Below, one piece after another: positions 33,441 through 63,962 of a DNA stretch of 64,000 nt. The number at the start of each line of letters is the position of its first letter. Position 1 is the stretch's first letter. Source of the stretch: Candidatus Omnitrophota bacterium (GTDB lineage: Bacteria; Omnitrophota; Gorgyraeia; Zapsychrales; Zapsychraceae); contig JAHFGL010000002.1 of assembly GCA_023247445.1 (NCBI GenBank), positions 553 through 64,552 of the forward strand, written 5' to 3'. The notes under the pieces are model-generated. The model made no database searches, was not told the origin of the DNA, and saw nothing but the letters and a program-made list of their open reading frames with translations. Made by a program: the position numbers and the translations under genes.

Positions 33441-33458
33441 GTGTTTAAGGTGGGGAAA

Positions 33459-36400
33459 ATGAGAAAAAATTTCGCAACTAAGTTACAAAGAATCTTAAGT
33501 ATGAATGTGGCGGTATTTATTTTATTAATTTATTCAGGGGTTTCTTCCTCTGTAAGCACATTTAACTTACGTCATGTTGGCTCGACCCCGATCGAAATTG
33601 TTGTCAGTTGGGATCAGGTCTCTAATGCAGAGAAATACATCTTACAGCGAAGCACCAGTTCCTCATTTAATCCTGTGGATGCTGAATTTCAGTTTTCCAA
33701 AACAATTTTAGCTTATGGAGACACGGGCCATAGTAATCCAGCTGAGCCTATGCGGTTTAAGGAAAGGGAAAAATCACTCTTATTATTGTCTCCTGAGGTG
33801 GATTATTATTATCGGGTTTTCGCTTATGATCTTAATAATAATCTATTAGCGGAAAGTACGTCTGTATTTGCTAAGCCAGACGCTGGATCCCTAACAGATG
33901 CTTCAGGGCAGAGACCTGTTATTGAAGGAGATCTTCGAGCTGATATTGTCCTTGGGCAACCTAATTTTCTTGAGTTTAATGAGCTTCAACCAAATGCCAA
34001 TGGTGGCGTCAATATCGGAGGAGTTGTCGTTGATAAATCAATTCCTGGGCAAGATCGTTTATATATACTTGATGCAAATCATAATCGTGTTTTAGGTATG
34101 CCTTCAATCAATCCGGATTCTGGTGCTACTTCAGCTACGATTGTTTTAGGGCAACCAAATTTTGAATCGGCAGCATGTAATGGCGATATGACCTACGACG
34201 GTTATCCTACTAAAAGAAATCCAAAAGAAGATACTTTATGTTTTGCTGAGCCGGGCGAAAAGAGTCCTAGAGAAGTCGTGGTTTGGTCAATCATGAGTGT
34301 TGATTTGGATGGTAATTTGTATGTCGCAGACTTCTTAAATCAACGTGTTTTAAAGTATGTAAAGCCATTTGAAACAAATATGGTTGCAGATGAGGTTTGG
34401 GGGCAAGGAGAAGGTGTGGATAAGTTTACATCCAATACTTGTAATAAAGAAGGGCTCAGTGCTTCGTCTCTTTGTTTGCTTAAAGGATTTCCTATGGATC
34501 ATATGACGGCCAGTGTTCATATCGACCGAAATGGTAATTTATGGGTTGTGGATTTAGGTAATCGTAGAGTTTTAAGATACCCAAAAATTGGCAATGAAAT
34601 TTCTAAGATAGCGGATTTGGTTTTGGGTCAGGATAATTTTACGACCATCAAAGAAAACATCCCTGTTGATAGTCTTAAGTATTTGTATTACCCAAAATTT
34701 GTTGTCAGCGATGAGTCATCAGGGGACATTTATGTAGGCGATCAAGGAGATGAAACTCATCCTACGAGGATTTTAAAGTATGCTGCAGAAAATATTCCAT
34801 TAGCAGGACAAGGTGGAGAGAGTGCATTAACTGCTCAAGAGATTATATTTGGAAATACTTCTACGTTACCAAATCAGACAAACAATCATTGGCGAATTAC
34901 TAGCTTATCCTATGATTCGACAAGGCATGGCCTGTGGATTCAGGCAGAGGGGAAGAATTATCTTTATAATTTTTTAAATAATAGTGTAACTAAAATTGTT
35001 CTCTCTGGATATGACCCCCGGGGAGTGGATGTTGATTCTAGGGGAAATCTTATCACTGTAGGATCCTATGATGACCTTCGTGATGTCAATTTATTTTTGG
35101 CAACGGATATTGATAACGTAAATGTAACTGCTCAGAACCCTCTCACTTCAGATAATAGAAAGAATATTTTTAGAACTGGCCCTTCATTAGTGATGGATCA
35201 CGGGTTAAGTGGTTTAAAGAATGTTACTGGGTTGACTATTGCTGGGAATCAGTTGGTAATTAGCGATTTTGGTCGACTTCTTTTTTGGAATGATTACCGT
35301 ATTCTTTCTACAGGTCAATCAGCCGATGGGGAATGGGCTTATGGTTATGATAAGAATATGGCTTCTCCAAGAGTCGATGCGCAAAATAGATTGTGGTTTT
35401 CAAGTCTTTTGCCACTTAATTCGGATGTTCCCACTCAAGGTGAAAATTGTTCAGAAGAGTCTTGCCTGCATGCGGTGTTGCTTCCTCTGGCACCCGACTC
35501 ATCTTTAGTTAAGAGTTTTCCAATAAATAAAGTTGAATTACGAGCTAAAAGAAAATTTATGACTGGCATTGAATATCAGGATTTTATACGGTTTTATCCA
35601 TCAACGGATCGAAGTGGAAATGGGGTTTTATGGATTGCTACACACAATAAAGGTGTATTTCGTTTAGTAAATATTAATAAAGAAAAGGATGCGAGTCGTG
35701 GTCCATATGTTGATGTTGTCTTGGGTCGGGCAAATAAGTTAGATCAGGTCTGTTCTTCTGAGGCAGGTTATAATCCAACCGCCAGTACTATCTGTAACGC
35801 TAATGATGTCCGTGTTGATTCGGAAGGGAATGTATGGGTTGTCGATAAACCTTACGGAGAGGATGAGGAATTTACTAGATTACTTATGTTTTCATCTATT
35901 TCGATTCCTGATTCTGATGATATTCGCCATGAAACAGTGTTTGGCATTCCAGCTTCTAAGGTCTATGGGACCGGAGGTGATTTTCTGCGCCGAACGAATC
36001 CAGAATTAGATGTTGATGCGAGCCCTTTTGTTCCATCTATTTCGACAGAAAAAAGATCAATGATATTAGATACTCATTATGATGACTCAATCTTTCCTTT
36101 GGTTTATTTAGATTATGATAATGTCAATATCCCGCAATTTTCTCTAGGAGACGCAACTATGTTTGGCATTGATTCTACCTTTGATCCCGAGGGTAATTTT
36201 TATATGGGGGACAAGGTTTGGAATCGTGTGCTTATTTATAAAAAGCCGTTACTAAACGTTACCAAATATAATCATCCTCCTCAATTAAATATGCCCAATC
36301 AGATTCCTGTTATTGAAGGGGTAAATATTTCATTTCAAGTAACGGGTTATGATTTAGATGGAGACATATTTACTGTTTCTGCAAACGGATTGCCTTTAGG

Positions 36401-37367
36401 GGCGCATTTTGACCCTGTAACTCGACGATTTGACTGGACGCCCACATTGGAGCAAGCTGGCACTTATCAAATTACCTTTCAGGCCTCTGACACAAAAGGG
36501 GGCATTTCCACAAACAGCATTTCGATCACCGTAATAGATAGTGTGCTTTTATCGCCAAGTAATTTGTCGGCTAGGACATTGAATACACCGGTTGTTGGAT
36601 TAACTTGGGTTGATAATTCTAATTGTGAAAATTCTTTTAGTATTGAGCAAAGCGTGGATGGAATTAATTATCAAGTGGTGGGAAGTGCCTCTGCCAATAC
36701 TACCTCTTATAATGTACAACCGAGCGTAATGAACCAAACTCTTTATTATCGTGTTCGAGCTATGCGAGGCAGCATGGGATCAGACCCTTCTGATGCGATT
36801 GCTGTTAATGATCCTCTCTATGTAAAAGTAGTCGAAAAAGGAACAGGGACTCCTTTGGCGTTTATTCAGGTATCTTTGCGGGGAGTAAGAGCAAGTGATG
36901 GGAAATTAATTAAAGTTCAAGGACTGACGGACGCTGATGGCTATGTTGTTTTAAGAAACGTAACTTCTCCGAAATTCAATTATCGAGTAAGGGGTAAAGC
37001 GATAAGACTCGAAGCGAAGTATCAAATCAAGACCATGACCGTTACAGATATCAATCACCTTATTTCTATGGAAGGAGCATTAAGTGGCGTTGGTCAGGGT
37101 TCTCAAACCGGTCAATTTACTTTAGATGGATATGTTACTAGCTCGGATGAAACTTTTGCGATTGCCGACGCGGAAATTGCATTGATACAACTAGATGGGG
37201 CCAAGATTCGTTTAACGGTCAGAAGCGGTAGTGATGGATATTTTGCATTTAATAATTTGAAAAATGGTCGGTATAGGGTTGTGGTTACTAAAAAGGGTTA
37301 TCGATTTAATGAGCAGACAGATATTATTAATAATGAAAACTTCGAGATGAATTTTATAGCGAAATAA
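33459..37367 (+). CDS. giant secreted NHL-repeat beta-propeller protein with He_PIG Ig-like domain, FN3 and C-terminal CarboxypepD_reg-like domains
   Basis: GNLYVADFLNQRVLKY and GNLWVVDLGNRRVLRY NHL blades; the HPPQLNMPNQIPVIEG...DLDGD Ig-like module; C-terminal beta-sandwich repeats. The start is taken at ATG 33459 (RBS AGGTGGGG). Confidence 0.8.
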   Translation: MRKNFATKLQRILSMNVAVFILLIYSGVSSSVSTFNLRHVGSTPIEIVVSWDQVSNAEKYILQRSTSSSFNPVDAEFQFSKTILAYGDTGHSNPAEPMRFKEREKSLLLLSPEVDYYYRVFAYDLNNNLLAESTSVFAKPDAGSLTDASGQRPVIEGDLRADIVLGQPNFLEFNELQPNANGGVNIGGVVVDKSIPGQDRLYILDANHNRVLGMPSINPDSGATSATIVLGQPNFESAACNGDMTYDGYPTKRNPKEDTLCFAEPGEKSPREVVVWSIMSVDLDGNLYVADFLNQRVLKYVKPFETNMVADEVWGQGEGVDKFTSNTCNKEGLSASSLCLLKGFPMDHMTASVHIDRNGNLWVVDLGNRRVLRYPKIGNEISKIADLVLGQDNFTTIKENIPVDSLKYLYYPKFVVSDESSGDIYVGDQGDETHPTRILKYAAENIPLAGQGGESALTAQEIIFGNTSTLPNQTNNHWRITSLSYDSTRHGLWIQAEGKNYLYNFLNNSVTKIVLSGYDPRGVDVDSRGNLITVGSYDDLRDVNLFLATDIDNVNVTAQNPLTSDNRKNIFRTGPSLVMDHGLSGLKNVTGLTIAGNQLVISDFGRLLFWNDYRILSTGQSADGEWAYGYDKNMASPRVDAQNRLWFSSLLPLNSDVPTQGENCSEESCLHAVLLPLAPDSSLVKSFPINKVELRAKRKFMTGIEYQDFIRFYPSTDRSGNGVLWIATHNKGVFRLVNINKEKDASRGPYVDVVLGRANKLDQVCSSEAGYNPTASTICNANDVRVDSEGNVWVVDKPYGEDEEFTRLLMFSSISIPDSDDIRHETVFGIPASKVYGTGGDFLRRTNPELDVDASPFVPSISTEKRSMILDTHYDDSIFPLVYLDYDNVNIPQFSLGDATMFGIDSTFDPEGNFYMGDKVWNRVLIYKKPLLNVTKYNHPPQLNMPNQIPVIEGVNISFQVTGYDLDGDIFTVSANGLPLGAHFDPVTRRFDWTPTLEQAGTYQITFQASDTKGGISTNSISITVIDSVLLSPSNLSARTLNTPVVGLTWVDNSNCENSFSIEQSVDGINYQVVGSASANTTSYNVQPSVMNQTLYYRVRAMRGSMGSDPSDAIAVNDPLYVKVVEKGTGTPLAFIQVSLRGVRASDGKLIKVQGLTDADGYVVLRNVTSPKFNYRVRGKAIRLEAKYQIKTMTVTDINHLISMEGALSGVGQGSQTGQFTLDGYVTSSDETFAIADAEIALIQLDGAKIRLTVRSGSDGYFAFNNLKNGRYRVVVTKKGYRFNEQTDIINNENFEMNFIAK

Positions 37368-37526: not shown

Positions 37527-38537
<1,011 letters not shown>

Positions 38538-38751: not shown

Positions 38752-41700
38752 ATGAATAAAAAACTATTACGAAGAAATCTTTTTATTAGTTTAATTGTCT
38801 TATCCTTTTCCTTCCCATCGTACGCCGAGATTAATATCCAAGACATTGAATCACCCGCCCAAGTGGCGAGCCCCACACCTGATCCAGGCTATCAACAACA
38901 TTGGCAGCTAAAACAGCAACAGATGCTTCAACCAAGAAGTGTGGTGAGCGCTCAAGTGAGCACTCAGCCTTCCTTTGGAAAAGCAACCGGCGCTGGATTT
39001 AATGATACGAGTTTGTATTTTGCTGGAGATATTGCCGTCTCTATATTCTTTACCGCAGGCTTAGATGGCGCGTGGAATACCACCGATATGGAATCCACGA
39101 TTCAGAAAATTCGTAGCGCCTTAGATGAATTTAAAACAATTGAGCCCAATGCACGAATCAACTTTACCTATATTAAGGAAGTGGACGCATTAGGTAATCC
39201 AAAACCTTTTCCTGCAACACCACTCGAAGAAAGAGAATATGCCAACGATTTAAGAAATTTAAATAATACCCATTGGGCATTTTTGATTGTTATTAAAAAT
39301 GAATCTGGCGGTGTAACCAAACCAGCTTATTCTTTTGTGAATGGACCTTCAGTTCATCTTTACAAAAATCATTTGGATCCTTTAATTATCCGTCATGAAA
39401 CGATGCATATTTTTGGAGCGCTTGATCAATATATCCCGAGCTCAACGACCCAAGGACCGACGAACACCGCTGGATATTTAAATGTCGTCAATGCTAATAG
39501 TTTAACGAGTAGTGGCAAGGGTTTTTTTGCAGGCACAGGAGAAGGAAAATCTGATTTAATGATGTCGAGATTAAGTTCTACCATTGGAACGTATTCCCGA
39601 GGACAAGTTGGATGGAGGGATAGTGATGGCGATGGTATCTTTGATCCTCTAGATACAATCCCTGAAACAAAAATTTTATCTGTGACCGGCAATAATCCTT
39701 ATACCATTTTGGGAACGGTTGTGGATCAAGGTATTCCCAATGAATTAGAGAATGCCTTTGCTTTTTCAAGGGCCAGGGTTTCAGTTAATACGATTACACA
39801 AATTCAATTTCGTGTCGATAACGGCGTGTGGGTGGATGTTTTGGCTAGTGACGGTAATTTAAATTCTGGTAGGGAAGATTTTAATCTTACAATTCCCGCT
39901 TTACCCAAAGCAGCGCATACACTTGAAATTCGTGCCATCAATTCTGTCGGTAATATCGAAACATCTTATGCCAAAGAAAGAATTGTGGTGACGACAAGCT
40001 CTGTGACCATGATGCCGACTTTTAAAGCTTCGCCAATTAAACCTCTATTTAACGCCTTAACAGCTTCTTTTATTGTTACTCCTGAGAATTATCACGGTGA
40101 TAGTTTACCAACGTATACTGTTGCGTTAGATGCCAACACATCTTTTGATATGGAAGATCCTGTGTCCTCGCTTAAAGTGCGTTGGGATTTTGAGGGAGAT
40201 GGAATTTGGGATACAGGTTATTCGACTACTAAAACGATAAATTATAATTATTTATTAGATAAGTCATATGACCATACACTTTTTGCGACGTCGAATAATG
40301 CTTATGATGTCGCGGTGGCTGGCAACATGGCCTATGTGGCGGGTAATTCTTTAAAAGTTGTCAACATTGCTAATCCGGCGAGTCCGGTGCTTTTGAGTAC
40401 ACTTTCAACCGGAACGATATTAACGAATGTTTGTGTCGTCAATAATTATGTGTATTTGATAGATCAAGGCAGTCGGTTTTATGTGGTCGATGTGACTAAC
40501 CCGTTAGCTCCAGTTCTAAAAAATCCATCTGGCTTAAGCATGCCGGGATTAGCAACAAGTATGACGGCCATGGGTTCTTATGTTTATGTGGGGCTTTCGT
40601 TTCAAAGTGAGGTAAGGGTGATTAACGTTACTAATCCAGTTGCTCCAGTTATTGCTGGCCAAATTAACACGACTTTTTATGTTAATGACATTTTTGCTCT
40701 TAACAACAATTTGTATGTTATTTCTAATGGTTCTCTACAAATATTTAATATTTCTAATCCGTTGGCAGCAACATTAACAGGAAAATTAAGCGGGTTTATT
40801 GTTGCCAGTAAAATTTTTGTTAAAGGTTCTTTAGTTTATGTTGGTGATAATAACTTTGGTTTAAAGATTGTTAGCGCCAGTAACTTAGCCAGTCCACAGC
40901 TTGTCGGCAGCTACGCACTCGCTTCTCCGGTACCAGCTATTAATAGTCTTGTCGTGGTTGGTAACACGGCCATTCTTTCGCTGGGGAGCAAAACAATCAT
41001 GATGCTAGATGTTACTAATACGGCTAATCCTGTATTAATCGGTCAGAAAGAAATGGTTTCTTTTGCTTATGGCCTCGATGGGAACACTCAAAATGCTTAT
41101 CTGGCCAACGGCAGCAGTGGCTTAGCTATTTTTGATATGACCAAACAAGGCCTTGTGCCAACCACGTTAAGTAAGAAAATTTTGATGGAGGTGATGGACA
41201 CCGCTGGCAATATCGCTAAGACTTCACGCAATGTCTGGGCGGTAACTTATAATCATCCACCGAAAATTGACTCCATCGAAGCCACCGATACCCACGGCGT
41301 TCAATTTGAATTAGCGGGTGTTTATGCCAACAACTATCGACTTTCGATTCGAGACATGTTTACGACGGGTTCCTATTTATACATCCTTTATGAAGAATTG
41401 TTGAGTGTGGGTTCTCGTTATGGATTTCAAATCATTAATATTACAAATCCTTCTTCGCCATATCCTATTGCCAGCCCATATCTTAGTTCAATTGCGAATC
41501 GTGATGTTTTTGCCAGCGGAGATCTTGTGTATGTGGTGGATGATCATGGTTTAAAGATTTTTAATACATCGAATCCAAATCAAGTGATGGGGGCTTTTGC
41601 TAAAACAGGAGTTTTATTTGTTAAGGTGCAAGGGGCATACGCCTATTTAACGACTGAAAAGGAATTTTTGATTTTAAATGTTGGTAATCCAGCCAATCCT

Positions 41701-43533: not shown

Positions 43534-44069
43534 TTAAGAGTCACGATCTATTCTTTCTATCCTAAGATTTTTTATCCATTTAAAGGAAACGGTTTCTCAA
43601 ATCTGCATTTACCCTCTTGTTTTCTACCAGCCCATGTGCAATATTTAAAACAAGCAGTTCAGAAAATTAAACAAAAAATAACAGAACACCAAAATACGAA
43701 GATCATGGTTATCTCTAAGTTAAGTTTACCTTTATATATAACAATCACTCAAAGCCTAATTCACCAGATAAGATATTTAGTATATATCTTTATCGGGAAT
43801 GTTTTACCGTTACGGCTTTTTGGGATTGCTTGTTTAGTTAAACGTATTTAGAGTAAGCACGATTTTCGGCAGCAAGGATTGAAGATGAACGTTTGGACCT
43901 TGTTACTGAGAAAAGAAACAAAAGTAATCAATAAAGAATTCTTAAGGAACCTATTTCTAGAAATTAGAAATAGGTTTTTTTGTTTAGTTCTTGGAAAAAG
44001 TCAACCATCGCCGATCCTTGTAAAAGATTGGTTTTTATTTCAACCAATGAACAATAGAGGAGAATTCAA

Positions 44070-46475: not shown

Positions 46476-46490
46476 CCTACGGGAAAGATA

Positions 46491-48580: not shown

Positions 48581-48753
48581 ATCAAAATTAAGGGGCAGTT
48601 TTTAATATAGCTAATTCATTGTAATCAAATAAGTTCTGTCTCTACTAGAAGAAACCGATTTCTTGAGGGTGGATAAACCCTCTTGCGGTTAGGCAAATAT
48701 GTGGCATAGTTATAGTAGAGAAGTGTAGCTGATCTTTATATAAACTAATTTTA

Positions 48754-54900: not shown

Positions 54901-54935
54901 GACAGCCGAATCTAACCATAACCGGTGTCAGGTAA
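51909..54935 (+). CDS. giant secreted GLUG-motif repeat protein with beta-propeller-like middle region and CarboxypepD_reg-like C-terminal domains
   Basis: Signal peptide; repeated GGLVG.NxG.I motifs (the GLUG motif as in IgA-protease-like adhesins); C-terminal GTVRDSQGNPSLGATVEISG... beta-sandwich modules. Confidence 0.75.
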   Translation: MNKINCCQSRNIFLPVLSFIIFSFALLFSVNSQAAEFHVTKCDDLRYVNAHLQDTIILDNDIDCKGPAILWPIGLNALPNGFQGTFNGQNHTISNITLSMYKNPGELMPAGFFAATSGATISNLNLDNISVVGNRCVGALVGNAAGGTITNVIVTGKISGPKFGADANPQAVGGLVGCNSATISQSATYVIVEGGNTMGGLVGINDAGGNITQSFANGRIDANAAINWDDTDVLGGLVGNNNGGSVTDSYAMVRGFLLKAQAAIKYVWGGFGGNNSGSNTNTFATHGFKRGSFTQTDGINWDDTDVLSGGLVGTSNNMPVSSFWDIQLSGHNTSAGGVGKTTVEMKQQSTYQNWDFAQNWSACEGKDTPVLQSSGVGCASPVLQNTLLDPDQTSGTQTETSFGKKVAIDDNILVVSDTGDRGYNQGAVYIYRKNNDQWSLANTIFPTDGVNLEYFGHEFFLEGNLLYVFKTTQTRTVKDVYTFIYSKETGQWQQIKKQTLNLGTGSDNYLTAVTSNMLAIRSLSSSSRNIKIFENGPTGWQLISTITPVASMTASINADIDGDNVVVRTLDYSGLARIYIYTKTGQLKQVIQDPLLSNYFGNTVSLNGDTLVVSSGRGDCTSSPKPLPSVYKYAGTQWSFVQRLYERGTSLIEANSVIDDFKDGNIVITYPWAAGCLPPNTGAIARPTAGVNVYQNKNGQWKPAYSLDIPDQSTSGPVAAVSGNTLAVGSFNSGLSANKILVYSLGGENKGKIKGTVRDSQGNPSLGATVEISGPSGVVTLTTGLFGQYETAFLSAGTYQVTAKNSNHTFNPPTSSVTIPSNDTFVDFTEEMTQGTKIQTTVKNTSNQGVSGIVVKIQQGSNVLESGLTDASGIYTSANTYAPGSYDVVVSSAQYCFTPILNSQPITIPAQSSPTVSANFTAYNLLVGKLVDSAGQPIAAAKIYLRGTTSSFGTDANGYFYVPDNSTTRSLPYRFYKMMKPSGGWYSFGPDVFVYSKRQPNLTITGVR

Positions 54936-55121: not shown

Positions 55122-56819
55122 ATGGCCATCAAAACAAAATTTCCTATCGGTCAGCTTCTCATCGAGAAGAAGATCATTACCCCCGAACAATTAGAGATAG
55201 CGCTTAAGAAACAAAAAGAAACCAACGAGCCGCTGGGCGTAACCCTCATTAAATTAGGTTTTATTGAAGAAGAAACGATTTTTTTGCCCGTTTTAGCCGG
55301 ACAAATGGGTGTTGATTATGTGAATTTGAAAGATATTGAAATCCCTCCCGAGGTCTTAAGCAAAATTCCCGCCAAGTTTGCCAGTCATTATAAAATTATG
55401 CCGTTTGCCTTTAGGAGTAATACGATTTCGATTGCAACGGCCGTTCCCATCGACATTCATCTGCTGGATGAAATTGGATTGGTTGTTAATTATCCACTGC
55501 AATCTGTTTTAGCGAGCGAAAAAGATATATTGGAAGCCATCCGAAAATATTATGGAGTTGGGGCGGAGACGATTGAAAAAATGATGGGCTCGGTGCAGAA
55601 GTCGAATCAACAGGAAACAGAAATTGCGGAGATTGACGAAACAGGTTCCGAGGCCTCGATTAGCAAATTTTTAAATCAAATTCTTCTGCAGGCTTATCGT
55701 GATCGCGCCAGTGATATCCATATTGAACCCTTTGAAGATAATTTGCAAATTCGTTATCGAGTTGATGGCATCCTTTATGATGCCAAAGTTCCTCCTAACA
55801 TTAAACATTTTAAAGATGAAATTAATTCTCGGATTAAAATCTTATCAAATCTTAACATCGCCGAGAAACGGTTGCCTCAGGACGGCCGTTTTAAAGTACG
55901 AGTTAAGGATGTTGATATTGATCTTCGCGTTTCATTTTTGCCAACGCCGTATGGAGAGAGTGTTGTCTTACGCGTTTTGAATTCGACCCGCTTATTTAGT
56001 TTTGAAGAATTAGGACTGATCGATTATGAACGCAAAATTCTTGAAGAGTTAGTTAAGAAGCCTCACGGAATTATTTTTTTAACCGGGCCAACCGGAAGTG
56101 GAAAGACAACGACACTTTATTCGTGTCTTTCTCAAGTGAACACAGAAGATAGAAAAATTATCACAATTGAAGATCCGATTGAATATCAACTTAAAGGCAT
56201 TACGCAAATTCAAACTAATCCCAGAATTGGATTAACCTTTGCCCATGGACTACGTTCGATGCTTCGTCATGATCCTGATATTATGATGGTCGGAGAAGTT
56301 CGGGATCGTGAAACAGCGGAAATTGCGATTCAAGTGGCTTTAACTGGGCATTTAATTTTTTCAACACTGCATACCAATGACGCGGCCAGCGGCGTTACGC
56401 GTTTGCTCGATATGGGGGTTGAGCCATTTCTGGTGACGAGCACCATCGAATGTTTTATTGCTCAACGATTGATCCGCATGTTGTGTTCGAAATGTAAACA
56501 GCCAACGAAATTAAATGATCAGCTTCTTAAAGATTTTGAAGGTCAGGTTGAAATTCCTAAAGATATGACGATTTATGAAGGCAAAGGTTGCGAGTCCTGT
56601 AAAATGACCGGTTATATTGGTCGAGAAGCCATTTATGAGTTTTTGCTAATGACAGAACCGATTCGACAACTGATTATGCAACGCGCGACCGTTAATCAGA
56701 TTAAAGAAAAAGCGATCGAGCAAGGAATGAAAACACTGCGGCAGTCGGGATGGGATAAGGTTGTGCATGGATTAACGACGCCGGAAGAAGTTGTCAGGGT
56801 CACTAAAGAAGAAACTTAG
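55122..56819 (+). CDS. gspE: type II secretion / type IV pilus assembly ATPase (GspE/PilB family) with N-terminal T2SSE_N domain
   Basis: Walker A GPTGSGKTTT, the Asp box, Walker B, and the Cys4 cluster CSKCKQ...CESCKMTG. Confidence 0.9.
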   Translation: MAIKTKFPIGQLLIEKKIITPEQLEIALKKQKETNEPLGVTLIKLGFIEEETIFLPVLAGQMGVDYVNLKDIEIPPEVLSKIPAKFASHYKIMPFAFRSNTISIATAVPIDIHLLDEIGLVVNYPLQSVLASEKDILEAIRKYYGVGAETIEKMMGSVQKSNQQETEIAEIDETGSEASISKFLNQILLQAYRDRASDIHIEPFEDNLQIRYRVDGILYDAKVPPNIKHFKDEINSRIKILSNLNIAEKRLPQDGRFKVRVKDVDIDLRVSFLPTPYGESVVLRVLNSTRLFSFEELGLIDYERKILEELVKKPHGIIFLTGPTGSGKTTTLYSCLSQVNTEDRKIITIEDPIEYQLKGITQIQTNPRIGLTFAHGLRSMLRHDPDIMMVGEVRDRETAEIAIQVALTGHLIFSTLHTNDAASGVTRLLDMGVEPFLVTSTIECFIAQRLIRMLCSKCKQPTKLNDQLLKDFEGQVEIPKDMTIYEGKGCESCKMTGYIGREAIYEFLLMTEPIRQLIMQRATVNQIKEKAIEQGMKTLRQSGWDKVVHGLTTPEEVVRVTKEET

Positions 56820-56868
56820 TAATCGTATTTCGTATTTAGTACATCGTACTTCGCTGAGGATTGATGAG

Positions 56869-57228
56869 ATGGAGAAGATTAAAAATTTTAAAGAATTGAG
56901 GATATGGCAGAAAGGGATAGAAATTGTTAAAGATGTTTATTCGATGACCAAAGATTTTCCCAAAGAAGAATTGTATGGTTTAACAAGTCAAATGAGACGC
57001 TCTGCAATTTCAATACCATCTAATATTGCCGAAGGATTTAAAAGATTTCATGATAAAGAGTATAAGCAGTTTTTGCATATCACTTTAGGATCTGCTGCTG
57101 AATTAGAAACACAGATTATTATCTCTAAGGAACTTAATTTTATAGACCAAGAGAAGTTAGATAACATTCTAGAAAAATTAGATCATTTGGCCAAAATGAT
57201 TTCTTCTCTTTTAAATAAAATACAATAA
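56869..57228 (+). CDS. four-helix-bundle protein (23S rRNA intervening-sequence protein family, TIGR02436-like)
   Basis: MEKIKNFKELRIWQKGIEIVKDVY...ELYGLTSQMRRSAISIPSNIAEGF...GSAAELETQ, the canonical 4HB signature; ~119 aa from ATG 56869. Confidence 0.8.
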   Translation: MEKIKNFKELRIWQKGIEIVKDVYSMTKDFPKEELYGLTSQMRRSAISIPSNIAEGFKRFHDKEYKQFLHITLGSAAELETQIIISKELNFIDQEKLDNILEKLDHLAKMISSLLNKIQ

Positions 57229-57264
57229 CGATGTACGAAGTACGAATGACGAAATACGAAGTAT

Positions 57265-58503
57265 ATGCCAAGATTCCACTACAAAGCCAAAGAAGGTCCA
57301 ACCAAAATTATTGATGGAACCATCGAGGCTGATACGCTCGATGGGGCGATCAGTAAAATTATTGGTCTTAGGTTAACACCCCTTGATGTCGTTTTAGAAA
57401 ATCAACAGGAAGTAGAGAAGAAGGCCAAGGCAACAGCGCTTCTTAAAACGGACTTTAACTTTTTTAAGCGCGTTGGATTAAAAGATGTCGTTTTATTTAC
57501 GCGACAGATGAGTGATTTAATTGAGGCCTCAGTACCGCTACTGCGTTCAATACAAATCGTCAGCAATCAGACACAAAATATTTATTTTAAAGGGTTGATC
57601 CAAAATATGGCGACCTTTGTCAAAGATGGTGGATCATTTTCTGAAAGTTTATCCAAACATCCGCAGATTTTTTCTAACCTTTATGTCAATATGGTTAAGA
57701 CAGGCGAAGTCGGTGGACAGTTGGAACTTGTTTTAAAGCGTCTGGCCATTTATTTGGAGAAAGAACATGAGACGCGTTCTAAAGTTCGCTCGAGTTTGGC
57801 CTATCCTGCATTGATTCTCGTTGTCGGGGTTATCACTATTTTTGTGCTTTTGACCTTTGTTATTCCGCGACTGACCGTTATGTTTGAAGATCTTAATCAA
57901 TCTTTGCCCACACCAACCCTGATTCTTATTCAGATGAGTAATGTCTTTGCTCAGTATTGGTGGCTGATGATTATTGTTGTGGTTTTGGTTGCGGTGTATT
58001 TTAAAAAATGGAGTAATTCGGAAAATGGTCGACTCTGGTTAGATTCATCGTTATTAAAAATTCCTTTATTAGGGAATTTTATTCGCATTGTTGAAGTGGG
58101 CCGGTTAGCGAGGACTTTGGGAACATTGCTAGAAAGTGGTGTAACGATGACTAAGGCGTTAAAATCGGTTGCTGGACTGATTGATAATGTTGTCTTACGG
58201 GAGGAAGTTAGAAGAATGTCAGAAGAGGTGACGCAAGGATCTAGTTTAAGAAATGCCTTGAAACAATGTTCGTATTTTCCTGAAATGGCTGTTAATATGA
58301 TTTCCGTCGGTGAAGAGACGGGACGATTGGATCACAGCCTTTATAAAGTCGCTGAGACCTTTGAACGTGAGGCTGATGAAACGGTAAAAAGTATCGTGTC
58401 CTTGGTGGGGCCACTGGTTTTAGTTGTTGTTATTTCTATTGTTGGTTTTGTTGTTATTTCAATGTTACTTCCTATTTTTCAAATGAATTTAATTGTTCAA
58501 TAG
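57265..58503 (+). CDS. gspF: type II secretion inner-membrane platform protein (GspF/PilC family)
   Basis: Two GspF repeats, 3 TMs, N-terminal MPRFHYKAKEG...GL.PLDV. Confidence 0.85.
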   Translation: MPRFHYKAKEGPTKIIDGTIEADTLDGAISKIIGLRLTPLDVVLENQQEVEKKAKATALLKTDFNFFKRVGLKDVVLFTRQMSDLIEASVPLLRSIQIVSNQTQNIYFKGLIQNMATFVKDGGSFSESLSKHPQIFSNLYVNMVKTGEVGGQLELVLKRLAIYLEKEHETRSKVRSSLAYPALILVVGVITIFVLLTFVIPRLTVMFEDLNQSLPTPTLILIQMSNVFAQYWWLMIIVVVLVAVYFKKWSNSENGRLWLDSSLLKIPLLGNFIRIVEVGRLARTLGTLLESGVTMTKALKSVAGLIDNVVLREEVRRMSEEVTQGSSLRNALKQCSYFPEMAVNMISVGEETGRLDHSLYKVAETFEREADETVKSIVSLVGPLVLVVVISIVGFVVISMLLPIFQMNLIVQ

Positions 58504-58575
58504 TAAGGTCATCAACTTTTTAACTTTGAAGTGGTGGATCTTGCTAAACAAAAATAATAAAAGGCGGGAGGCGTT

Positions 58576-59019
58576 ATGAATTTCAAAACAAAGAATGCAT
58601 TTACATTAATTGAAATCATGTTGGTGGTTGTGATCATTGGTATTTTGGCAGCGATGATTGTTCCTAATATCGCTGGCCGAGGCGAGCAGGCCCGTAAATC
58701 CACCGCCAGGACGGATATTGAAGCTAATCTTCCATCAGCCCTGGATCTTTATGAAATGGATAATGGCCGTTTTCCAACAACGGAACAGGGACTTAAGGCC
58801 TTGATTCAAAAACCATCAACCACGCCTGAGGCAACCAACTGGAGTGGTCCTTATTTGAAAAAGAAAAAAATGCCTCTGGATCCTTGGGGACATGAATATA
58901 TTTATAGTTCTCCCGGCGCGCATAACACGGATGATTACGATTTATCGTCCTATGGTCAAGATGGAATTGAAAGTAAGGATGATGTGACGAATTGGGGGAT
59001 TGATACTTCCAAGAAATAA
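58576..59019 (+). CDS. gspG: major pseudopilin GspG
   Basis: Prepilin signal KNAFTLIEIMLVVVIIGILAA; GRFPTTEQGLKAL; DPWG..Y.Y..PG. Confidence 0.9.
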   Translation: MNFKTKNAFTLIEIMLVVVIIGILAAMIVPNIAGRGEQARKSTARTDIEANLPSALDLYEMDNGRFPTTEQGLKALIQKPSTTPEATNWSGPYLKKKKMPLDPWGHEYIYSSPGAHNTDDYDLSSYGQDGIESKDDVTNWGIDTSKK

Positions 59020-59197
59020 ATTCCAATATACAAATCTTAAACACCAAACAATACAATAAATTCCAATTACCAAATAATATACAAATCCCAATGGCTAAGA
59101 TTTACATTTAGTTTTGTATTTTGTTAATTGGAATTTGTTTGGTATTTGTGATTTTGGATTTGTATATTGCCTGTAATTTGGGATTTGGGATTTTAAA
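59020..59197 (+). repeat. bipartite intergenic element (a ~72-nt G-free half, then a ~100-nt C-poor half), homologous to 27766-27910
   Basis: AAATTCCAATTACCAAATAATATACAAATCCCAAT ... TTGGAATTTGTTTGGTATTTGTGATTTTGGATTTGTATATT...TGTAATTTGGGATTTGGGATTTT. Confidence 0.6.
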
Positions 59198-59692
59198 ATG
59201 CAGATATTCAAGTCCAAACAAGCCGCGTTTACTTTAATAGAAATAATTTTAGTTGTTCTTATTTTATCTGTCATCGCCTGCTTAGCCATTCCCAACTTTG
59301 GCCAAACATATTCACAGCTGCAGCTTAAACAAACGACGGAAGATTTGGCTTATTTAATGCGTTATGCGCAGACTTTCGCCATCAGTAACAGTCAAAATGT
59401 TCAGTTAGAATTTGATTCTGAATTTTCATCTTACTGGTTGAACAAAAGTACGGCAGATACGTCGGTGGCCGATTCTTCTTTTGTCCGAATTAATGGGCGT
59501 ATGGGGCGGACATTTGATATTCCAAGGACAATAAAGATTAAAGCAGAAAACGCCTATATTCTTTTTTATCCCGATGGAAAAATAGATAAGGTTCGTATCG
59601 ATGTGTGTCAGGAACAAAAATGTCTGGCGATTTCAACCAAAGAACAAAAAGGATATGTGAGGGTATTTGATGCGAGTTTATTGGATGATTAA
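59198..59692 (+). CDS. gspH: minor pseudopilin GspH-like
   Basis: Prepilin motif KQAAFTLIEIILVVLIL. Confidence 0.75.
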   Translation: MQIFKSKQAAFTLIEIILVVLILSVIACLAIPNFGQTYSQLQLKQTTEDLAYLMRYAQTFAISNSQNVQLEFDSEFSSYWLNKSTADTSVADSSFVRINGRMGRTFDIPRTIKIKAENAYILFYPDGKIDKVRIDVCQEQKCLAISTKEQKGYVRVFDASLLDD

Positions 59693-59713
59693 AAGGGTCA
59701 TGGGTCAAGGGTC

Positions 59714-60151
59714 ATGAGAGTGCCTTGCGCCTTGCGCCTTGCCCCTTTTAAGATTTTAAGAAATTGTAAACAAGGTTCTTTACTGCTTGAGGCCTTATTA
59801 TCTGTTGTCATCCTTTCGGTTAGCATTTCCGTCATTATTCAGGCCATGACAGCTAGCTTAAGATCGACGATTTATAGCGCTGAATATACGAAGGCAATGA
59901 TTCTGTTGGAAAATAAAATGGTAGGACTTATGCAACAATCAATAGGGCAGAGCTCAACGGATACACCGACTGATGATTCAGTGACAGACGAAAAGTTTCA
60001 ATATTTGATAACGGAAGATTCATTGCCCGGCGATGATGCCAAAAATTTAGAAAAGGTTGCGCTGGCGATATCTTGGAAGAGCAAAGGAAAAAGCAATAAT
60101 ATTTCTGTAAGTACGTATAAATTTAATCCACCTGAATTGGCATCTCAATGA
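59714..60151 (+). CDS. gspI: minor pseudopilin GspI-like (the start codon is uncertain; the prepilin site is G|SLLLEALL)
   Basis: KQG-SLLLE matches the G/(F,M,S)xxxE prepilin peptidase motif. The track start 59714 gives an unusually long leader, and a TTG at ~59735 is an alternative start. Confidence 0.65.
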   Translation: MRVPCALRLAPFKILRNCKQGSLLLEALLSVVILSVSISVIIQAMTASLRSTIYSAEYTKAMILLENKMVGLMQQSIGQSSTDTPTDDSVTDEKFQYLITEDSLPGDDAKNLEKVALAISWKSKGKSNNISVSTYKFNPPELASQ

Positions 60152-60861
60152 GACTTAGACAAAAAGGTTTTACATTAATTGAACTTCTTCTTGGGCTAAC
60201 GATTTTTTCGCTCATCATTACATGTATCTATAGCACCTTAGCCGGGGGGATTCATCTAAGTCGTCGTAGTCAGCAGCAGAATGATATCTACCGCGAGATG
60301 CGTTGGTCGCTTAACTGGATGAGTAAAGATTTGGAAAATATGGTGCCCTATAATTTTACCAATTCTTATCCCGAAATATTTGCTTGCATGGGTGATGATA
60401 AAAAGATTACGTTTCTTTTGCCAACGGATGATGGGTTAAAGGTTGTCAGTTATTATTTAGCGTCTACGCAAGGAGGAAGCATTCATAAGGTAACCATTGG
60501 CCAGACTTACAAGAAAAATGTTTCAACGATGACAAAATACGAGGAGAAATATCGAGTTGATAGTTTGGTTAGAGAAGAGTTTGATTTTGCTGATTATTTG
60601 CAAGACCCAGCGCAAGCCAAGGGCGAGATCGAAATTGTTGCCAGTAATGTCCGAGAAAATGGACTTAAATATTCTTATGGATATCTAGAGGGAGAAAAAA
60701 GTGCGACGGTTGCTTGGAAAAATAATTGGAGTTCGAACAATCTTCCTCGCTATGTTCGTATTGATATCGATTTCCAATCAGCGCAAAAACCATTTCAACT
60801 GCATTCATTAACAAAAGACATTTGGATCCCAACAGGATCTTTAAGTGATCAACAATCGTAG
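60148..60861 (+). CDS. gspJ: minor pseudopilin GspJ-like
   Basis: QKGFTLIELLLGLTIFSLI prepilin motif; 237 aa; ATGA overlap with gspI. Confidence 0.75.
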   Translation: MRLRQKGFTLIELLLGLTIFSLIITCIYSTLAGGIHLSRRSQQQNDIYREMRWSLNWMSKDLENMVPYNFTNSYPEIFACMGDDKKITFLLPTDDGLKVVSYYLASTQGGSIHKVTIGQTYKKNVSTMTKYEEKYRVDSLVREEFDFADYLQDPAQAKGEIEIVASNVRENGLKYSYGYLEGEKSATVAWKNNWSSNNLPRYVRIDIDFQSAQKPFQLHSLTKDIWIPTGSLSDQQS

Positions 60862-60864
60862 GCC

Positions 60865-61959
60865 ATGATACGAAAATTATTACGAAGTTCTCATAAGATT
60901 AAAAATGATTCTGGTATAATAATCATCATTGTATTATGGGCGATGGTCATTTTAACGACGTTGGTTGTAAGTTTGGGTCGAAATACCTCTATCGAACTAT
61001 CGTTAACCAAATATGCCCTGGGAGATCTTAAGGCTAAATATTTGGCCTGGGCGGGTTTAAACTTCGCGATGAACCAAATCAAAATTGATTCTGACGATCA
61101 ATTATCGAACTCCTTCGATAATTTATACTATTGTGCTATTTCCAGTAGCCAGGAGGATTCCACGGAACAATTATTTAAGCATAAAGAATTGGGTCAGGGG
61201 TATTTTGATATTCGTTATGTCTATAAAGGTTCATCGGGCGCTCAGAAGTTAGATTTTTATGGGATGCAAGATGAAGAGCGCAAGATCAATATTAATACAC
61301 TAAACAATGTGGCTATCTTAAATTCATTGTTGGAGATTTTGGGAGTTGATGCCACAACCGCCCAAACGATTTCGTATTCGATTCTTGACTGGAAAGACGC
61401 CGACAAAGATTTGAGTCAGAACAATTTTGGAGCGGAAGATGAATATTATACCGGCCAAACCCCATCGTATCATTGTAAGAATGCGCCTTTTGATTCATTG
61501 GAAGAGCTTTTATTAGTGAGGGGGATGACAAAGGAAATTTATAGTAAGGTTAAAGATTATCTAACAGTTTTTCCCAAGGACGGCCCATTTGTAATTAATT
61601 TTAATACGGCTTCTAAAACTGTTTTACAATCGGTTGCCCGGTGGGGGATCAGTCAATCACCTACTAACGATGTCGCGGATGCCGATTCTCTTGTTGATAA
61701 TATTTTAAGATATCGGGCTGGGGATGATTTAGAAGACGGGACTAAAGATGATCGATCTATTAATGTTGGGCAGTTTGGACTTGGTCTTAATGCCAAAGAA
61801 GGTTTTTTATTTTCGGTTATTTCCCAAATGGGAAACGAGAAATCAAATTATATTCGTGTTAGCGTTCTTGGCGTTGACAACGCCTCGCATGTTAAAGTTC
61901 CTATTGAAGCTGTAATCCGTCGAGATGACTTCGCCATTATCGATTGGCGAAGGTTTTAG
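60865..61959 (+). CDS. gspK: minor pseudopilin GspK-like
   Basis: N-terminal TM GIIIIIVLWAMVILTTLVVSL and a large periplasmic domain, ~360 aa, typical of GspK. Confidence 0.7.
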   Translation: MIRKLLRSSHKIKNDSGIIIIIVLWAMVILTTLVVSLGRNTSIELSLTKYALGDLKAKYLAWAGLNFAMNQIKIDSDDQLSNSFDNLYYCAISSSQEDSTEQLFKHKELGQGYFDIRYVYKGSSGAQKLDFYGMQDEERKININTLNNVAILNSLLEILGVDATTAQTISYSILDWKDADKDLSQNNFGAEDEYYTGQTPSYHCKNAPFDSLEELLLVRGMTKEIYSKVKDYLTVFPKDGPFVINFNTASKTVLQSVARWGISQSPTNDVADADSLVDNILRYRAGDDLEDGTKDDRSINVGQFGLGLNAKEGFLFSVISQMGNEKSNYIRVSVLGVDNASHVKVPIEAVIRRDDFAIIDWRRF

Positions 61960-61966
61960 TTATCCT

Positions 61967-63397
61967 ATGGCCAAAACAATTACAACTGTCATTGAAATTA
62001 GCGATACGCATGTAAAGCTTTTTCAATCGAAAGAAATTCAGGGCAAGCCCACCATATCGGCCTGTGACATTCGGCCAATTAAAAATTATACAGATGAAGA
62101 AATCGTTAGAGTGCTACTTGATCTTTCTCGGTCGAAAAACATTTCTCCGGATTCTTTGATCGTGGCTGTTGCCAGGCGGTTTACTATTTTAAAACAGATG
62201 AAGTTACCTTCCCAAAATGAAATAGAACTGAAGAAAATGATTGAGTTGCAACTTGTCAGCCAAATTCCTTATCCAGTGGAAGACGTTGTCTATGATTATT
62301 CTCCATTAGAAAAGGACGCCTCAGGGTATACTCAGCTTTTGATTACGGTCGCGCATAAGGATATTGCACGACGATATTTGAAAATTCTAAATACAGTTGG
62401 GATTAATTCTGGCAAATTAACATTAGGATCTTTAGGAATTTGGGGTTGGCTTAATTATCAAGAAAAATATAAGAAGATTGATCCTAATCAATCAATCGTT
62501 GTGATCAATATTGATCTAGGGCAATCTGAAATTTGTTTTTGTCATAATAAAAAGATGCTTTTTTCGCGGAGCATTAATTTTGGCGCTCGAGATTTAAATG
62601 GTGACAGTGTTTTAGCCATTTATAAACAAATCGAGCTTAGCTTATCAACTTATCAAAAAGAAAATTTTGGACCTGACGTTAAGAAAGTTATTTTATTATC
62701 GGGGCCGCAAGAGACATTAATCCTTAGAGATCGAATTGAACGAGAACTGAGCTTGCCCGTTGAGATCTGGTCTCCACTGGATAATGTTGTTTGTCAGAAA
62801 TATGTTGCGGTGGGAGATTTAAAAGAAATTCCCGTTGGGGCGCTAACCGTAGGCTTTGGACTTTTGTTTTCTGATTCTAAGAAATTGATGAATCTTACTC
62901 CGCAGGAGATTCATAATACACAAAAGAACAAGCAACGAAAAATTCAGTGGATTCAGTTTTCTGTTCTTCTAGGACTGACACTGATATTTGTGTTTTTGAT
63001 TTGGGGTGGCGAACTTTATCAAAAGATCAATCATTTAAATAGTATCAAAGCAAAAATTGATCAGACCAAGCCCCTTTTTAAAGAAGCCGAGCGTAAGATT
63101 CAGTTTGTTAAGGTATTAACGGATGAGTTAAATAATGGAATTTTTGTTCCGGATCTTATTAATGATTTGTATAAGTTAGCCCCAGAAGACATTTCGCTAC
63201 GATCACTTAATCTAGATGAACGAGGGACTTTTAGTATTCAGGGGTATGCTTTGACGCGCAGTGGGCTTAACACATTTCAGGCGAATCTAGTTCAATCGCC
63301 TAGATTAAAAGAGGTCAATTTGCAATTCTCGACAGAACGTAAGATTTTTAACATGGATGTGATTGATTTTCAGATTAACAGTCAGCTAAAAAAGTAA
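61967..63397 (+). CDS. gspL: GspL-like assembly protein: a PilM-type actin-like cytoplasmic domain fused via one TM to a PilN-like periplasmic domain
   Basis: N-terminal actin-like ATPase-fold region, TM IQFSVLLGLTLIFVFLIWGG at aa ~340, and a C-terminal coiled region. The start is taken at ATG 61967. Confidence 0.65.
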   Translation: MAKTITTVIEISDTHVKLFQSKEIQGKPTISACDIRPIKNYTDEEIVRVLLDLSRSKNISPDSLIVAVARRFTILKQMKLPSQNEIELKKMIELQLVSQIPYPVEDVVYDYSPLEKDASGYTQLLITVAHKDIARRYLKILNTVGINSGKLTLGSLGIWGWLNYQEKYKKIDPNQSIVVINIDLGQSEICFCHNKKMLFSRSINFGARDLNGDSVLAIYKQIELSLSTYQKENFGPDVKKVILLSGPQETLILRDRIERELSLPVEIWSPLDNVVCQKYVAVGDLKEIPVGALTVGFGLLFSDSKKLMNLTPQEIHNTQKNKQRKIQWIQFSVLLGLTLIFVFLIWGGELYQKINHLNSIKAKIDQTKPLFKEAERKIQFVKVLTDELNNGIFVPDLINDLYKLAPEDISLRSLNLDERGTFSIQGYALTRSGLNTFQANLVQSPRLKEVNLQFSTERKIFNMDVIDFQINSQLKK

Positions 63398-63407
63398 AAC
63401 AACGGTT

Positions 63408-63962
63408 ATGATTAAACGATTAACAAAACGTGAACAAGTAATCTTTATTGTTTGTCTACTACTTGTTTTGGTCTATGTGGGTTATCGAGCTGTCGCCAAA
63501 CCTTTAGAAGAGAAACTGTTTTTTTTGGACGATGAGATTGAGGCCCAGCAAAAGAAATTAAAGAAGAATTTAGGTGTTATTAACAAGGCCAAGGGCTTAA
63601 GTCAGCAGTACAGTAAATATCTAGAGGGGATGAAACAATCCGGCACCAATGAACAGGTGATGACATCACTTTTGGCGGAAATTCAAGAAATTGCAGCTCA
63701 ATTGGGCTTAAAGATTTCTGATTTAAAGCCAAAACGGGTTAAGAAGGAGGAATATTATAATTATTTTTCCGTTAGTCTTACCCTGGATGGGGACTTGAAA
63801 GAAATTCTTCAGTTTGTTTATATTTTGCAAAAAGAACCGCATCTTTTTCACGTGAATGAATTCAATTTTGAAAAAGGCGCACAGCGCAATTCTCAAGAAA
63901 TTAAAACACGGCTTATTTTAAGTCGAATTTTGATTCCTGAAACCAAAGAATTATCGCAATAA
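63408..63962 (+). CDS. gspM: GspM/PilO-like bitopic protein
   Basis: Short cytoplasmic N-terminus, single TM VIFIVCLLLVLVYVGY, a coiled coil, and a C-terminal ferredoxin-like region; 184 aa. Confidence 0.6.
   Translation: MIKRLTKREQVIFIVCLLLVLVYVGYRAVAKPLEEKLFFLDDEIEAQQKKLKKNLGVINKAKGLSQQYSKYLEGMKQSGTNEQVMTSLLAEIQEIAAQLGLKISDLKPKRVKKEEYYNYFSVSLTLDGDLKEILQFVYILQKEPHLFHVNEFNFEKGAQRNSQEIKTRLILSRILIPETKELSQ

Follow-up and report, generated by a model that had tools for sequence, protein, structure and literature searches.

The 64,000-nucleotide stretch analyzed here (the window; contig JAHFGL010000002.1 of the Candidatus Omnitrophota assembly GCA_023247445.1) contains five genes for large proteins, designated A–E, all of which lie on the strand of, and directly upstream of, a type II secretion system (T2SS) operon, gspEFGHIJKLM (Table 1). 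The original prediction, made from sequence alone, had read this region as a secretome island of co-regulated surface or secreted proteins with their export machinery. The five large open reading frames (ORFs) are indeed present where they had been placed, Pfam confirmed the domain content claimed for A, B, C and E, and gspE to gspM were found directly after the cluster, with a PilM-PilN fusion where GspL would be expected. With five ORFs of at least 800 residues in 21.5 kb, the cluster is about five-fold denser in such genes than the T2SS loci of relatives (baseline, about 4–5 ORFs of at least 800 residues per 100 kb around Omnitrophota T2SS operons), a density specific to this genome.

Signal peptides had been predicted on all five proteins and, as judged by a heuristic, the N-termini of A–E are Sec-like: the n-region is basic, the hydrophobic core that follows is 12 or more residues long, and small residues occur where cleavage would be plausible. 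Together with the Pfam domains, these N-termini bear out the extracellular-type architectures that had been proposed, and the expected mix of binding and protease modules was likewise recovered. The series is interrupted by GAPDH and by two toxin-antitoxin (TA) cassettes (one an AbrB/MazE-type pair, the other made up of a TIGR02574 antitoxin and a truncated toxin), as had been noted, but also by a 138-residue membrane ORF that had been overlooked.

Table 1. Features of the locus, in window coordinates.
Feature	Coordinates	Strand	Basis or remark
Protein A gene	33441..37367	+	1308 aa from GTG 33441; likelier start ATG 33459
Protein B gene	38752..43533	+	1593 aa
Protein C gene	44070..46475	+	801 aa
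Protein D gene	48987..51731	+	914 aa from corrected start
Protein E gene	51909..54935	+	1008 aa
GAPDH	37539-38537		between A and B
A leader aptamer	33234..33313	+	RF01051, 63.5 bits (gathering score 35), E 4e-10, full model
A terminator-like hairpin and U-run (UUUUUUUAUU)	33344..33405	+	minimum-free-energy folds; between aptamer and start codon
D leader aptamer, expanded	48752..48918	+	33.1 bits in Rfam clan, below gathering score
Insertion in D aptamer, two hairpins	48788..48869	+	82 nt; between GAC and GCAAAGC, in P1a internal loop
D intrinsic-terminator-like hairpin, 15-bp stem and CTTTTTTTAT	48933..48976	+	followed by AGGAGG and ATG 48987
Third aptamer, outside the flagged region	5087..5161	+	RF01051, 44.8 bits (gathering score 35)
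Terminator-like hairpin after third aptamer	~5196-5232	+	fold
Large exported protein with riboswitch leader, 952-aa ORF (P952)	5276..8489	+	PD40, Big_13, Y_Y_Y type (Pfam)
C leader terminator-like hairpin, 17-bp stem and U-run	43944..43980	+	90 nt before ATG
A cassette (penultimate and terminal modules)	36750..37364	+	module comparison
C cassette	45861-46472	+	module comparison
D cassette (last two of five modules)	51108-51728	+	module comparison
E, three generic modules	~54165-54932	+	Pfam, module scan
T2SS operon	55122..63962	+	Pfam, NCBIfam; runs on past window
gspE	55122-56819	+	T2SSE 443 bits, MshEN
gspF	57265-58503	+	T2SSF 205 bits
gspG	58576-59019	+	T2SSG 117 bits, N_methyl 27 bits
gspH	59198-59692	+	24 bits (cut-off 21)
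gspI-like	59714-60151	+	below NCBIfam cut-offs; expected order
gspJ-like	60148-60861	+	below NCBIfam cut-offs; N_methyl; expected order
gspK	60865-61959	+	T2SSK_1st 78.5 bits
PilM_2-PilN fusion in GspL position	61925-63397	+	Pfam
GspM/PilO	63408-63962	+	T2SSM, T2SSM_b, PilO, XpsM; below curated cut-off

Riboswitch leaders and an expanded aptamer

A conserved leader RNA had been claimed for three of the five genes. This RNA is real and matches the cyclic di-GMP (c-di-GMP)-I riboswitch, but the flagged region holds only two copies, in front of A and D; another copy is located outside that region, at 5.1 kb, ahead of the gene for P952, a sixth large exported protein. The order of elements is the same at each aptamer: downstream of it come a strong hairpin of terminator type, which would be the expression platform, then a Shine-Dalgarno sequence and the start codon. 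The annotated start of D (48843; 962 residues) falls within the aptamer, and the true start is probably ATG 48987, which is preceded by AGGAGG and gives a canonical signal peptide. The arrangement is consistent with a mechanism in which c-di-GMP-I riboswitches, acting on intrinsic terminators, would gate production of A, D and the sixth exported protein (5.3 kb).

In Clostridioides difficile, c-di-GMP riboswitches control, among others, a secreted metalloprotease, ZmpI, and an adhesin, CD2831. The C. difficile regulons (PMC6200980) likewise have terminator-platform riboswitches before exported virulence or adhesion genes. The present case differs in phylum, in being a diderm with a T2SS instead of sortase anchoring, in its targets (propeller and pseudo-glycosidase proteins of 0.9–1.3 thousand residues) and in one aptamer being expanded.

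The Rfam match on the D leader spans 48754–48911 and accommodates a large insertion. The aptamer core is intact, with a GNRA-capped P1a, GAC, GCAAAGC, P1b and UUACCGAA, and with equivalents of the ligand contacts G20, A47 and C92. It thus shares with canonical c-di-GMP-I aptamers (GEMM-I, RF01051, Vc2 type) the capped P1a, the GC...AAA...GAC...GC loop, the GCAAAGC junction and P1b. The canonical form differs from the D leader, from an aptamer in an Omnitrophota relative (locus L011) and from 33 metagenome stretches, all of which add 29–82 nt, comprising two hairpins, between GAC and GC, so that the internal loop becomes a multi-helix junction. The L011 aptamer (11803–11934), which has a 32-nt insertion at the equivalent site and passes the Rfam threshold, lies between gspE and gspF; it was the single match when the loci of 15 relatives were scanned with Rfam for a riboswitch near large proteins or a T2SS.

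The 33 metagenome stretches (27 distinct insertions; L085–L117) were retrieved from JGI contigs with a pattern that combined the canonical flanks with any 28–58 nt at the insertion site and imposed no structure; about 0.4 matches were estimated by chance. Folded in isolation, each of 29 distinct insertions examined forms two neighboring hairpins and no more, with a mean z of −4.2 relative to shuffled sequences. The D insertion, which is one of the 29 and was folded as the slice 48794–48875 (6 nt 3' of its true coordinates), gives its two top-level hairpins with a z of −5.2. In addition, a covariance model built from nine unrelated insertion-bearing metagenome examples, with D excluded, scored the D leader at 67.8 bits (E 1e-14, full length) and the window's canonical aptamers at 33 and 25 bits. 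In the resulting alignment of 33 sequences, double compensatory changes occur at 5/5 and 6/6 pairs of the inserted helices, and 97% of cells in these helices are paired, compared to 28–47% in slid controls; this alignment was fitted to the model and so leans to the structure, a bias that does not touch the folds of single sequences. As judged by these sequence comparisons, the D leader is a real, expanded variant of the c-di-GMP-I aptamer. The extra domain may change aptamer properties, such as affinity, kinetics or response to a second input.

Most expanded variants score 31–47 bits with Rfam, near or below the gathering score, and most match best a clan member whose threshold they miss. Because curated thresholds largely miss the expanded form, environmental c-di-GMP regulons are probably under-annotated. 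Our search of the accessible literature returned no description of an insertion-bearing aptamer, although one may already exist.

The genes that follow expanded aptamers include, by eye, those for large signal-peptide proteins, one subtilisin-like protein and one GGDEF-like protein, and at L095 the aptamer lies upstream of a GspC-like/PDZ protein (sub-threshold Pfam matches). In six metagenome contigs (L090, L103, L109, L112, L114 and L116), a conserved secreted family of about 170 residues follows directly, with ORFs starting 7–8 nt after the aptamer match and N-termini resembling MRKTLYLLLPLFIPFVSLREGAPS...; the one member searched had no Pfam match, and two full sequences end in ...NLRC. 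Expanded aptamers also occur in tandem at L096 (11089–11437, two matches about 220 nt apart), and two near-identical copies lie 650 nt apart at L097 (610–1388). At L011, the riboswitch and a terminator (11804–11960) occupy a 1.1-kb gap between gspE and gspF (11704–12792), in which about 0.8 kb after the terminator lack a convincing ORF.

Two further observations concern the start of the P952 gene and the leader of C. The P952 gene is frameshifted near 5421–5488, with a signal-peptide ORF (5276–5488) in one frame and the main frame open from about 5421; either the gene is truly a pseudogene, or the shift is programmed, or the assembly contains an indel. For the 540-nt leader of C (window 43534–44069), no Rfam family matched at E ≤ 10; its hairpin and those in the A and D leaders share the sequence AACCUAU at the start of the 5' arm.

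Predicted binding, protease and stalk-like modules

Among the five proteins, A, D and E look like binders from their predicted domains, an NHL propeller, a dead clan GH-A barrel and GLUG/FG-GAP regions, respectively, while B and C join predicted zinc metalloprotease domains to binding modules. By Pfam and a module scan, A comprises a signal peptide, the NHL propeller, a He_PIG/Big_9 Ig domain and a C-terminal two-module cassette; a metagenome scan found no relatives of A. In E, the signal peptide is followed by the GLUG region (Glug), FG-GAP_2 repeats and three C-terminal CarboxypepD_reg modules. C consists of a signal peptide, an M11-like metzincin domain (Peptidase_M11, 67 bits compared to a cut-off of 21; zinc site HEFGHNLGWYH), NPCBM_assoc and a C-terminal cassette.

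B starts with a signal peptide and a zinc-metalloprotease-like domain (about residues 90–300), followed by LVIVD propellers (five repeat matches, 120 bits in Pfam) and He_PIG. It had been called snapalysin-like, and the motif on which this was based, HExxHxFGAxDEY (HETMHIFGALD), is real: it is located at residue 215 and hardly varies among 24 homologues. The domain itself matches no Pfam family even at E ≤ 1, M7 snapalysin included. Since a direct sequence search of the Protein Data Bank with the N-terminal domains of B and D gave nothing useful, a fold search was needed. The AlphaFold2 (AF2) model of B (predicted local distance difference test score [pLDDT] 76.5) gave weak Foldseek matches (E about 3e-4, TM 0.3–0.5), all of them to zinc metalloproteases, namely adamalysins and fragilysin (metzincins) and the BF3526 peptidase. 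The N-terminal part of B is best described as an unclassified HExxHxFGAxDEY metalloprotease-like domain, with "snapalysin-like" fitting the putative active-site motif and not family membership.

D comprises a signal peptide, a clan GH-A (β/α)8 barrel and five CarboxypepD_reg/SdrD_B modules. Its N-terminal approximately 450 residues have no Pfam match; many homologues of this part (25–47% identity) bear Glyco_hydro_2_C or GH72. The AF2 model (pLDDT 83.6, predicted TM score [pTM] 0.85) is a (β/α)8 barrel with best Foldseek matches to GH157, GH158, GH2 and GH72, mostly beta-1,3-glucan-active families, and a further match to GH5 (E 4e-15 to 1e-9 over all of these). The proposal of a glycoside-hydrolase-like TIM barrel thus holds for the fold, but both the acid/base Glu after strand 4 and the nucleophile Glu after strand 7 are absent, so that "degradative" overstated the case. 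Where its sequence family has the catalytic motifs GNE and SE(F/Y)G, a feature in common with clan GH-A hydrolases (GH157, GH158, GH2, GH72), D reads ADG and ATF (N205D/E206G and E301T). Among 34 aligned homologues, N-E is present in 32 and the nucleophile Glu in 33, compared to D205-G206 and T301 in D. Hydrolysis by the retaining mechanism is not expected, and the loss of both catalytic glutamates suggests that D is probably a glycan binder rather than a hydrolase. From sequence and model together, we consider a glycan-binding pseudo-enzyme most likely; its ligand is probably a beta-glucan.

That four of the proteins end in CarboxypepD_reg modules was borne out for A, C, D and E (PF13620, 49, 53, 115 and 75 bits, respectively, compared to a cut-off of 32.3), while B lacks such a module. 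A hidden Markov model (HMM) trained on the window's own modules and scanned over the 64 kb placed them in exactly these four proteins, always at the C-terminus, with five in D, two each in A and C and two to three in E. Across A, C and D, identity is 27–34% among penultimate modules and 23–36% among terminal modules (26–36% for the modules of A against their positional counterparts in C and D), compared to 18–23% between the two modules inside one cassette; the three upstream modules of D form a separate group. This position-specific conservation indicates that A, C and D share a two-module cassette of about 200 residues.

The nearest solved relatives of the modules in a profile search are the rod or stalk domains of NOMO, SdrD B and UafA. 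As in the B-repeat stalks of SdrD and UafA (MSCRAMM) and the transthyretin-like rods of NOMO, tandem beta-sandwich modules of about 90 residues follow a functional head. In contrast to those proteins, the arrays here form the very end of the protein, where neither LPXTG nor another known anchor comes after them, and the last two modules form a conserved cassette in three otherwise unrelated proteins. By analogy, the arrays most likely act as rigid "beads-on-a-string" stalks, and the cassette possibly has a common function in surface retention or glycan binding. The best 150 database representatives found with the cassette profile, a list biased to giant repeat proteins with dozens of generic modules, carry the modules overwhelmingly as internal repeats of giant proteins. 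In the ORFs of 82 gspE-centered loci, the cassette HMM had one match, non-terminal, at L037; a word-indexed protein search with the cassette alignment gave one uninformative match and did not recover the query proteins themselves.

Known sorting signals, including the C-terminal domain (CTD) of the type IX secretion system (T9SS), were considered for A–E and rejected: none of the NCBIfam/TIGRFAM models for T9SS CTD, PEP-CTERM, GlyGly-CTERM or LPXTG matched at E ≤ 0.01. Far below cut-off, and away from the C-terminus, lie matches to SVAGG GlyGly-CTERM in C (302–386) and ScyF PEP-CTERM in A (283–308).

The secretion operon and the standing of the cluster

The operon continues past the window and was read on longer public contigs that carry an identical GspM (among them the source contig, L001). 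Downstream of gspM lie genes for a GspA-like AAA_22 ATPase, a 204-residue GspC-like protein and, three genes after gspM, a 605-residue secretin (Secretin 173 bits, two Secretin_N domains, GspD N0 domain). The 204-residue ORF in front of gspD matches three GspC models weakly, at 18–20 bits, far below their cut-offs. No prepilin peptidase was found in the locus; as read from these domain matches, the T2SS-type gene set is complete apart from this enzyme. The locus shares with canonical systems (Gsp, Pul, Eps, Xps) a GspE with an MshEN-like N-terminus, GspF, GspG, the minor pseudopilins H–K and a secretin that has N0 and Secretin_N domains, and also a candidate GspM, a GspA-like ATPase and a putative GspC. 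It departs from them in the PilM-PilN fusion in place of GspL, in GspI, GspJ and GspC being detected only below curated cut-offs, in the position of gspD at the 3' end of the operon, in the missing prepilin peptidase and in an inserted four-helix-bundle gene. In several relatives, a secretin-like ORF, recognized by eye from a C-terminal motif, lies just before gspE. A promoter-like site (55049–55076) follows a hairpin downstream of E (about 54986–55020), indicating that gsp is not co-transcribed with the cluster.

GspE might itself respond to the second messenger. MshEN domains consist of two tandem 24-residue motifs with a 5-residue spacer, and GspE residues 8–31 and 37–60 each match 10 of the 11 constrained positions of the relaxed motif (PMC5013675), with the same spacing. 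The MshEN-like N-terminus of GspE may therefore also sense c-di-GMP.

The inserted gene (56791–57263) lies between gspE and gspF and encodes a 23S rRNA intervening-sequence protein (TIGR02436, 134 bits); it is bordered by 31-nt inverted repeats (56823–56853 and 57229–57259; 84% complementary). The gspG-gspH spacer (59014–59186) holds a gene-less, long imperfect palindrome with nested inverted repeats, which may be an empty relative of the four-helix-bundle element.

The best relatives of GspE (73–50% identity) are found in metagenome-assembled genomes labelled Candidatus Omnitrophota or in third-party-annotation bins labelled uncultured Planctomycetales/Planctomycetia. Apart from one in Thermoflexales and one in candidate division KSB1, the named homologues of B and D belong to Omnitrophota/Omnitrophica. 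The gsp order from E to M is conserved across relatives' loci. Some relatives carry other extracellular-type giants beside gspE (PKD/He_PIG, SpvB-RHS and Ig/PKD proteins), and at L037 two FG-GAP and CarboxypepD_reg proteins lie next to gspE. Large proteins upstream of gspE at L004 (2–4861) and L045 (2–3226) look cytoplasmic by eye and share a tail, GGI(D/N)L(N/D)P..L.LQIKRD..G.PLP...QP; they were left out of the synteny argument as non-secretome proteins.

Based on these results, we favor, with moderate confidence, a lineage-specific cluster of five independently transcribed, Sec-exported proteins beside a T2SS, in which A, D and the sixth protein would be gated by c-di-GMP and for which we infer T2SS as the route. 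A Sec signal peptide would take each of A–E to the periplasm, where the protein would fold, and the T2SS, on which A–E would depend by analogy with established T2SS biology, would move the folded proteins to the cell surface or the medium, where they might serve adhesion or predation. Omnitrophota, which are uncultured and have tiny cells, are believed to prey on other cells or to live on them. The c-di-GMP riboswitches before large exported binders, next to a T2SS with a c-di-GMP-receptor-like ATPase, would offer a testable regulatory handle, and specific candidates for a part in retention at the surface and in the recognition of glycans are available in the shared cassette and the dead glycosidase.

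Giant adhesion and degradation genes near T2SS-like loci and PilZ genes have been reported in Omnitrophota (West-Roberts et al., 10.1101/2023.11.21.568195). The giant-gene loci described there and in a further report (10.64898/2026.06.07.730766) share with the present one the phylum and the proximity of large adhesion or carbohydrate-domain proteins to secretion genes, and a c-di-GMP link was proposed for them via PilZ and GGDEF proteins. Here, by comparison, the proteins have 0.8–1.6 thousand residues and not tens of thousands, five genes precede a canonical Gsp operon whereas there a mixed T2SS/Tad locus comes first, and the c-di-GMP link is made by riboswitches, which both papers leave unmentioned. 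The cluster itself varies, in a lineage-specific way, a theme already known from Omnitrophota; more distinctive are its predicted control by riboswitches and the expanded aptamer.

Several findings weigh against the favored account. Every gene from A to E has its own promoter-like site and terminator, and gsp has a promoter-like site of its own. The proposed co-regulation holds as a predicted c-di-GMP input on A, D and the sixth exported protein, but the leaders of B, C, E and gspE carry no riboswitch by Rfam, and folding and duplex energies gave an ambiguous ON/OFF direction because the leaders are AU-rich. Both MshEN-like motifs of GspE begin with Pro and not with the canonical Arg, with one further mismatch each. 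The signal peptides were called by heuristic and not by SignalP. Among the best 150 representatives of the cassette profile, the cassette stands at the extreme C-terminus only in proteins of this genome, and such a module is the last one only in A, C, D and a single further protein. T2SS cargo carries no linear sequence signal, so that cargo status cannot be read from sequence. Finally, synteny with gsp, which had been expected in relatives, was not found: the operon is conserved in 42 Omnitrophota loci, and homologues of A–E lie beside it in none, an outcome that largely agrees with what the original prediction had named as its refutation. The closest homologues found of the D glycosidase-like domain, in GCA_029261055.1, are scattered and far from gsp, and ORFs of at least 800 residues are not enriched near relatives' T2SS (4.7 upstream and 3.7 downstream per 100 kb).

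Sec-exported envelope and extracellular proteins are abundant in Omnitrophota, and A–E could be ordinary members of this class that lie by a housekeeping T2SS through coincidence, leaving by another route or staying in the periplasm or outer membrane. The lack of orthologous synteny and of enrichment, the separate transcription units with interspersed GAPDH and TA genes, and a gsp promoter-like site without a riboswitch all fit such a chance neighborhood, which we regard as rather doubtful but worth serious attention. Chance accounts less readily for the packing of five such genes, all on the T2SS strand, at the density given above, for the other extracellular-type giants directly by gspE in several relatives and for the secretion loci beside giant genes elsewhere in the phylum (10.1101/2023.11.21.568195); moreover, among the annotations of the window no type I or type V secretion system and no T9SS was seen that would provide an alternative exit. 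An improbable alternative concerns the operon itself, which might build a surface pilus or pseudopilus for adhesion or motility, resembling type IV pili, instead of a channel for A–E. The PilM_2 and PilN fusion in the GspL position, the PilO match of GspM, weak ComG and PilV matches of the minor pilins and the link of Omnitrophota type IVa pili to host attachment (PMC10066038) point in this direction; the T2SSG and T2SSK_1st matches of GspG and GspK, the detection of GspH, the XpsM match of GspM, the GspA-like ATPase, the GspC-like protein and the secretin with its GspD N0 domain argue for secretion, and no PilT-like second ATPase was found in the locus.

A role of A–E as structural parts of a cell coat or S-layer, with the CarboxypepD_reg arrays as lattice or anchor elements, has still less to commend it. 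The last module of D does weakly match the anammox Kustd1514 S-layer model (17 bits, E 6e-4), the modules resemble rod-forming domains and a giant Omnitrophota protein has been proposed as a "coat" (PMC10066038), but the S-layer match is far below the model's cut-off of 1400 bits, the N-terminal parts are heterogeneous (binding, protease) and not those of one repeated lattice protein, and a riboswitch that responds to a second messenger would point to expression under certain conditions and not to the constitutive expression of a structural protein. Least probable of all, and already disfavored, is a horizontally acquired genomic island, the sense in which "island" had to be given up. Although the gene content is lineage-specific and the TA stretch between C and D has a lower G+C content (0.348), G+C is uniform across the five genes and their flanks (0.39–0.41), GAPDH is embedded in the cluster, no tRNA and no flanking direct repeats were found, no integrase- or transposase-type match occurs among the annotated ORFs, and the closest homologues are themselves from Omnitrophota. 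The uniform G+C and the lack of a tRNA speak for a cluster and not an acquired island; the acquired-island reading was rejected on these grounds and on the lack of flanking direct repeats.

Beyond the favored account of an independently transcribed cluster beside a T2SS lies a bolder, tentative extension: the expanded aptamer would be an undescribed subclass and, together with the canonical copies and the MshEN-like GspE, would make c-di-GMP a master switch that couples production of attachment or attack proteins to their secretion in Omnitrophota, seen as putatively predatory or epibiotic nanobacteria. We consider this extension unlikely.

Within the cluster, a 64-nt repeat occurs in three copies (46965–47028, 47700–47763 and 48276–48339; 73–88% identical), situated after the membrane ORF and after each TA cassette, and encodes the ...LMAFWVLGNKYLK... 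C-terminus of the 138-residue membrane protein. These positions suggest that the TA cassettes either entered the membrane gene at its 3' end or were duplicated together with that end. The terminators after A (37377–37423) and after C (46490–46536) are related, sharing 77% identity over 47 nt with a GGGACACGTACC... palindrome. Elsewhere in the window, the cspA thermoregulator model has a sub-threshold match (3539–3874; 47.8 bits, gathering score 78), the probable source of which is a cold-shock gene with its 5' untranslated region.

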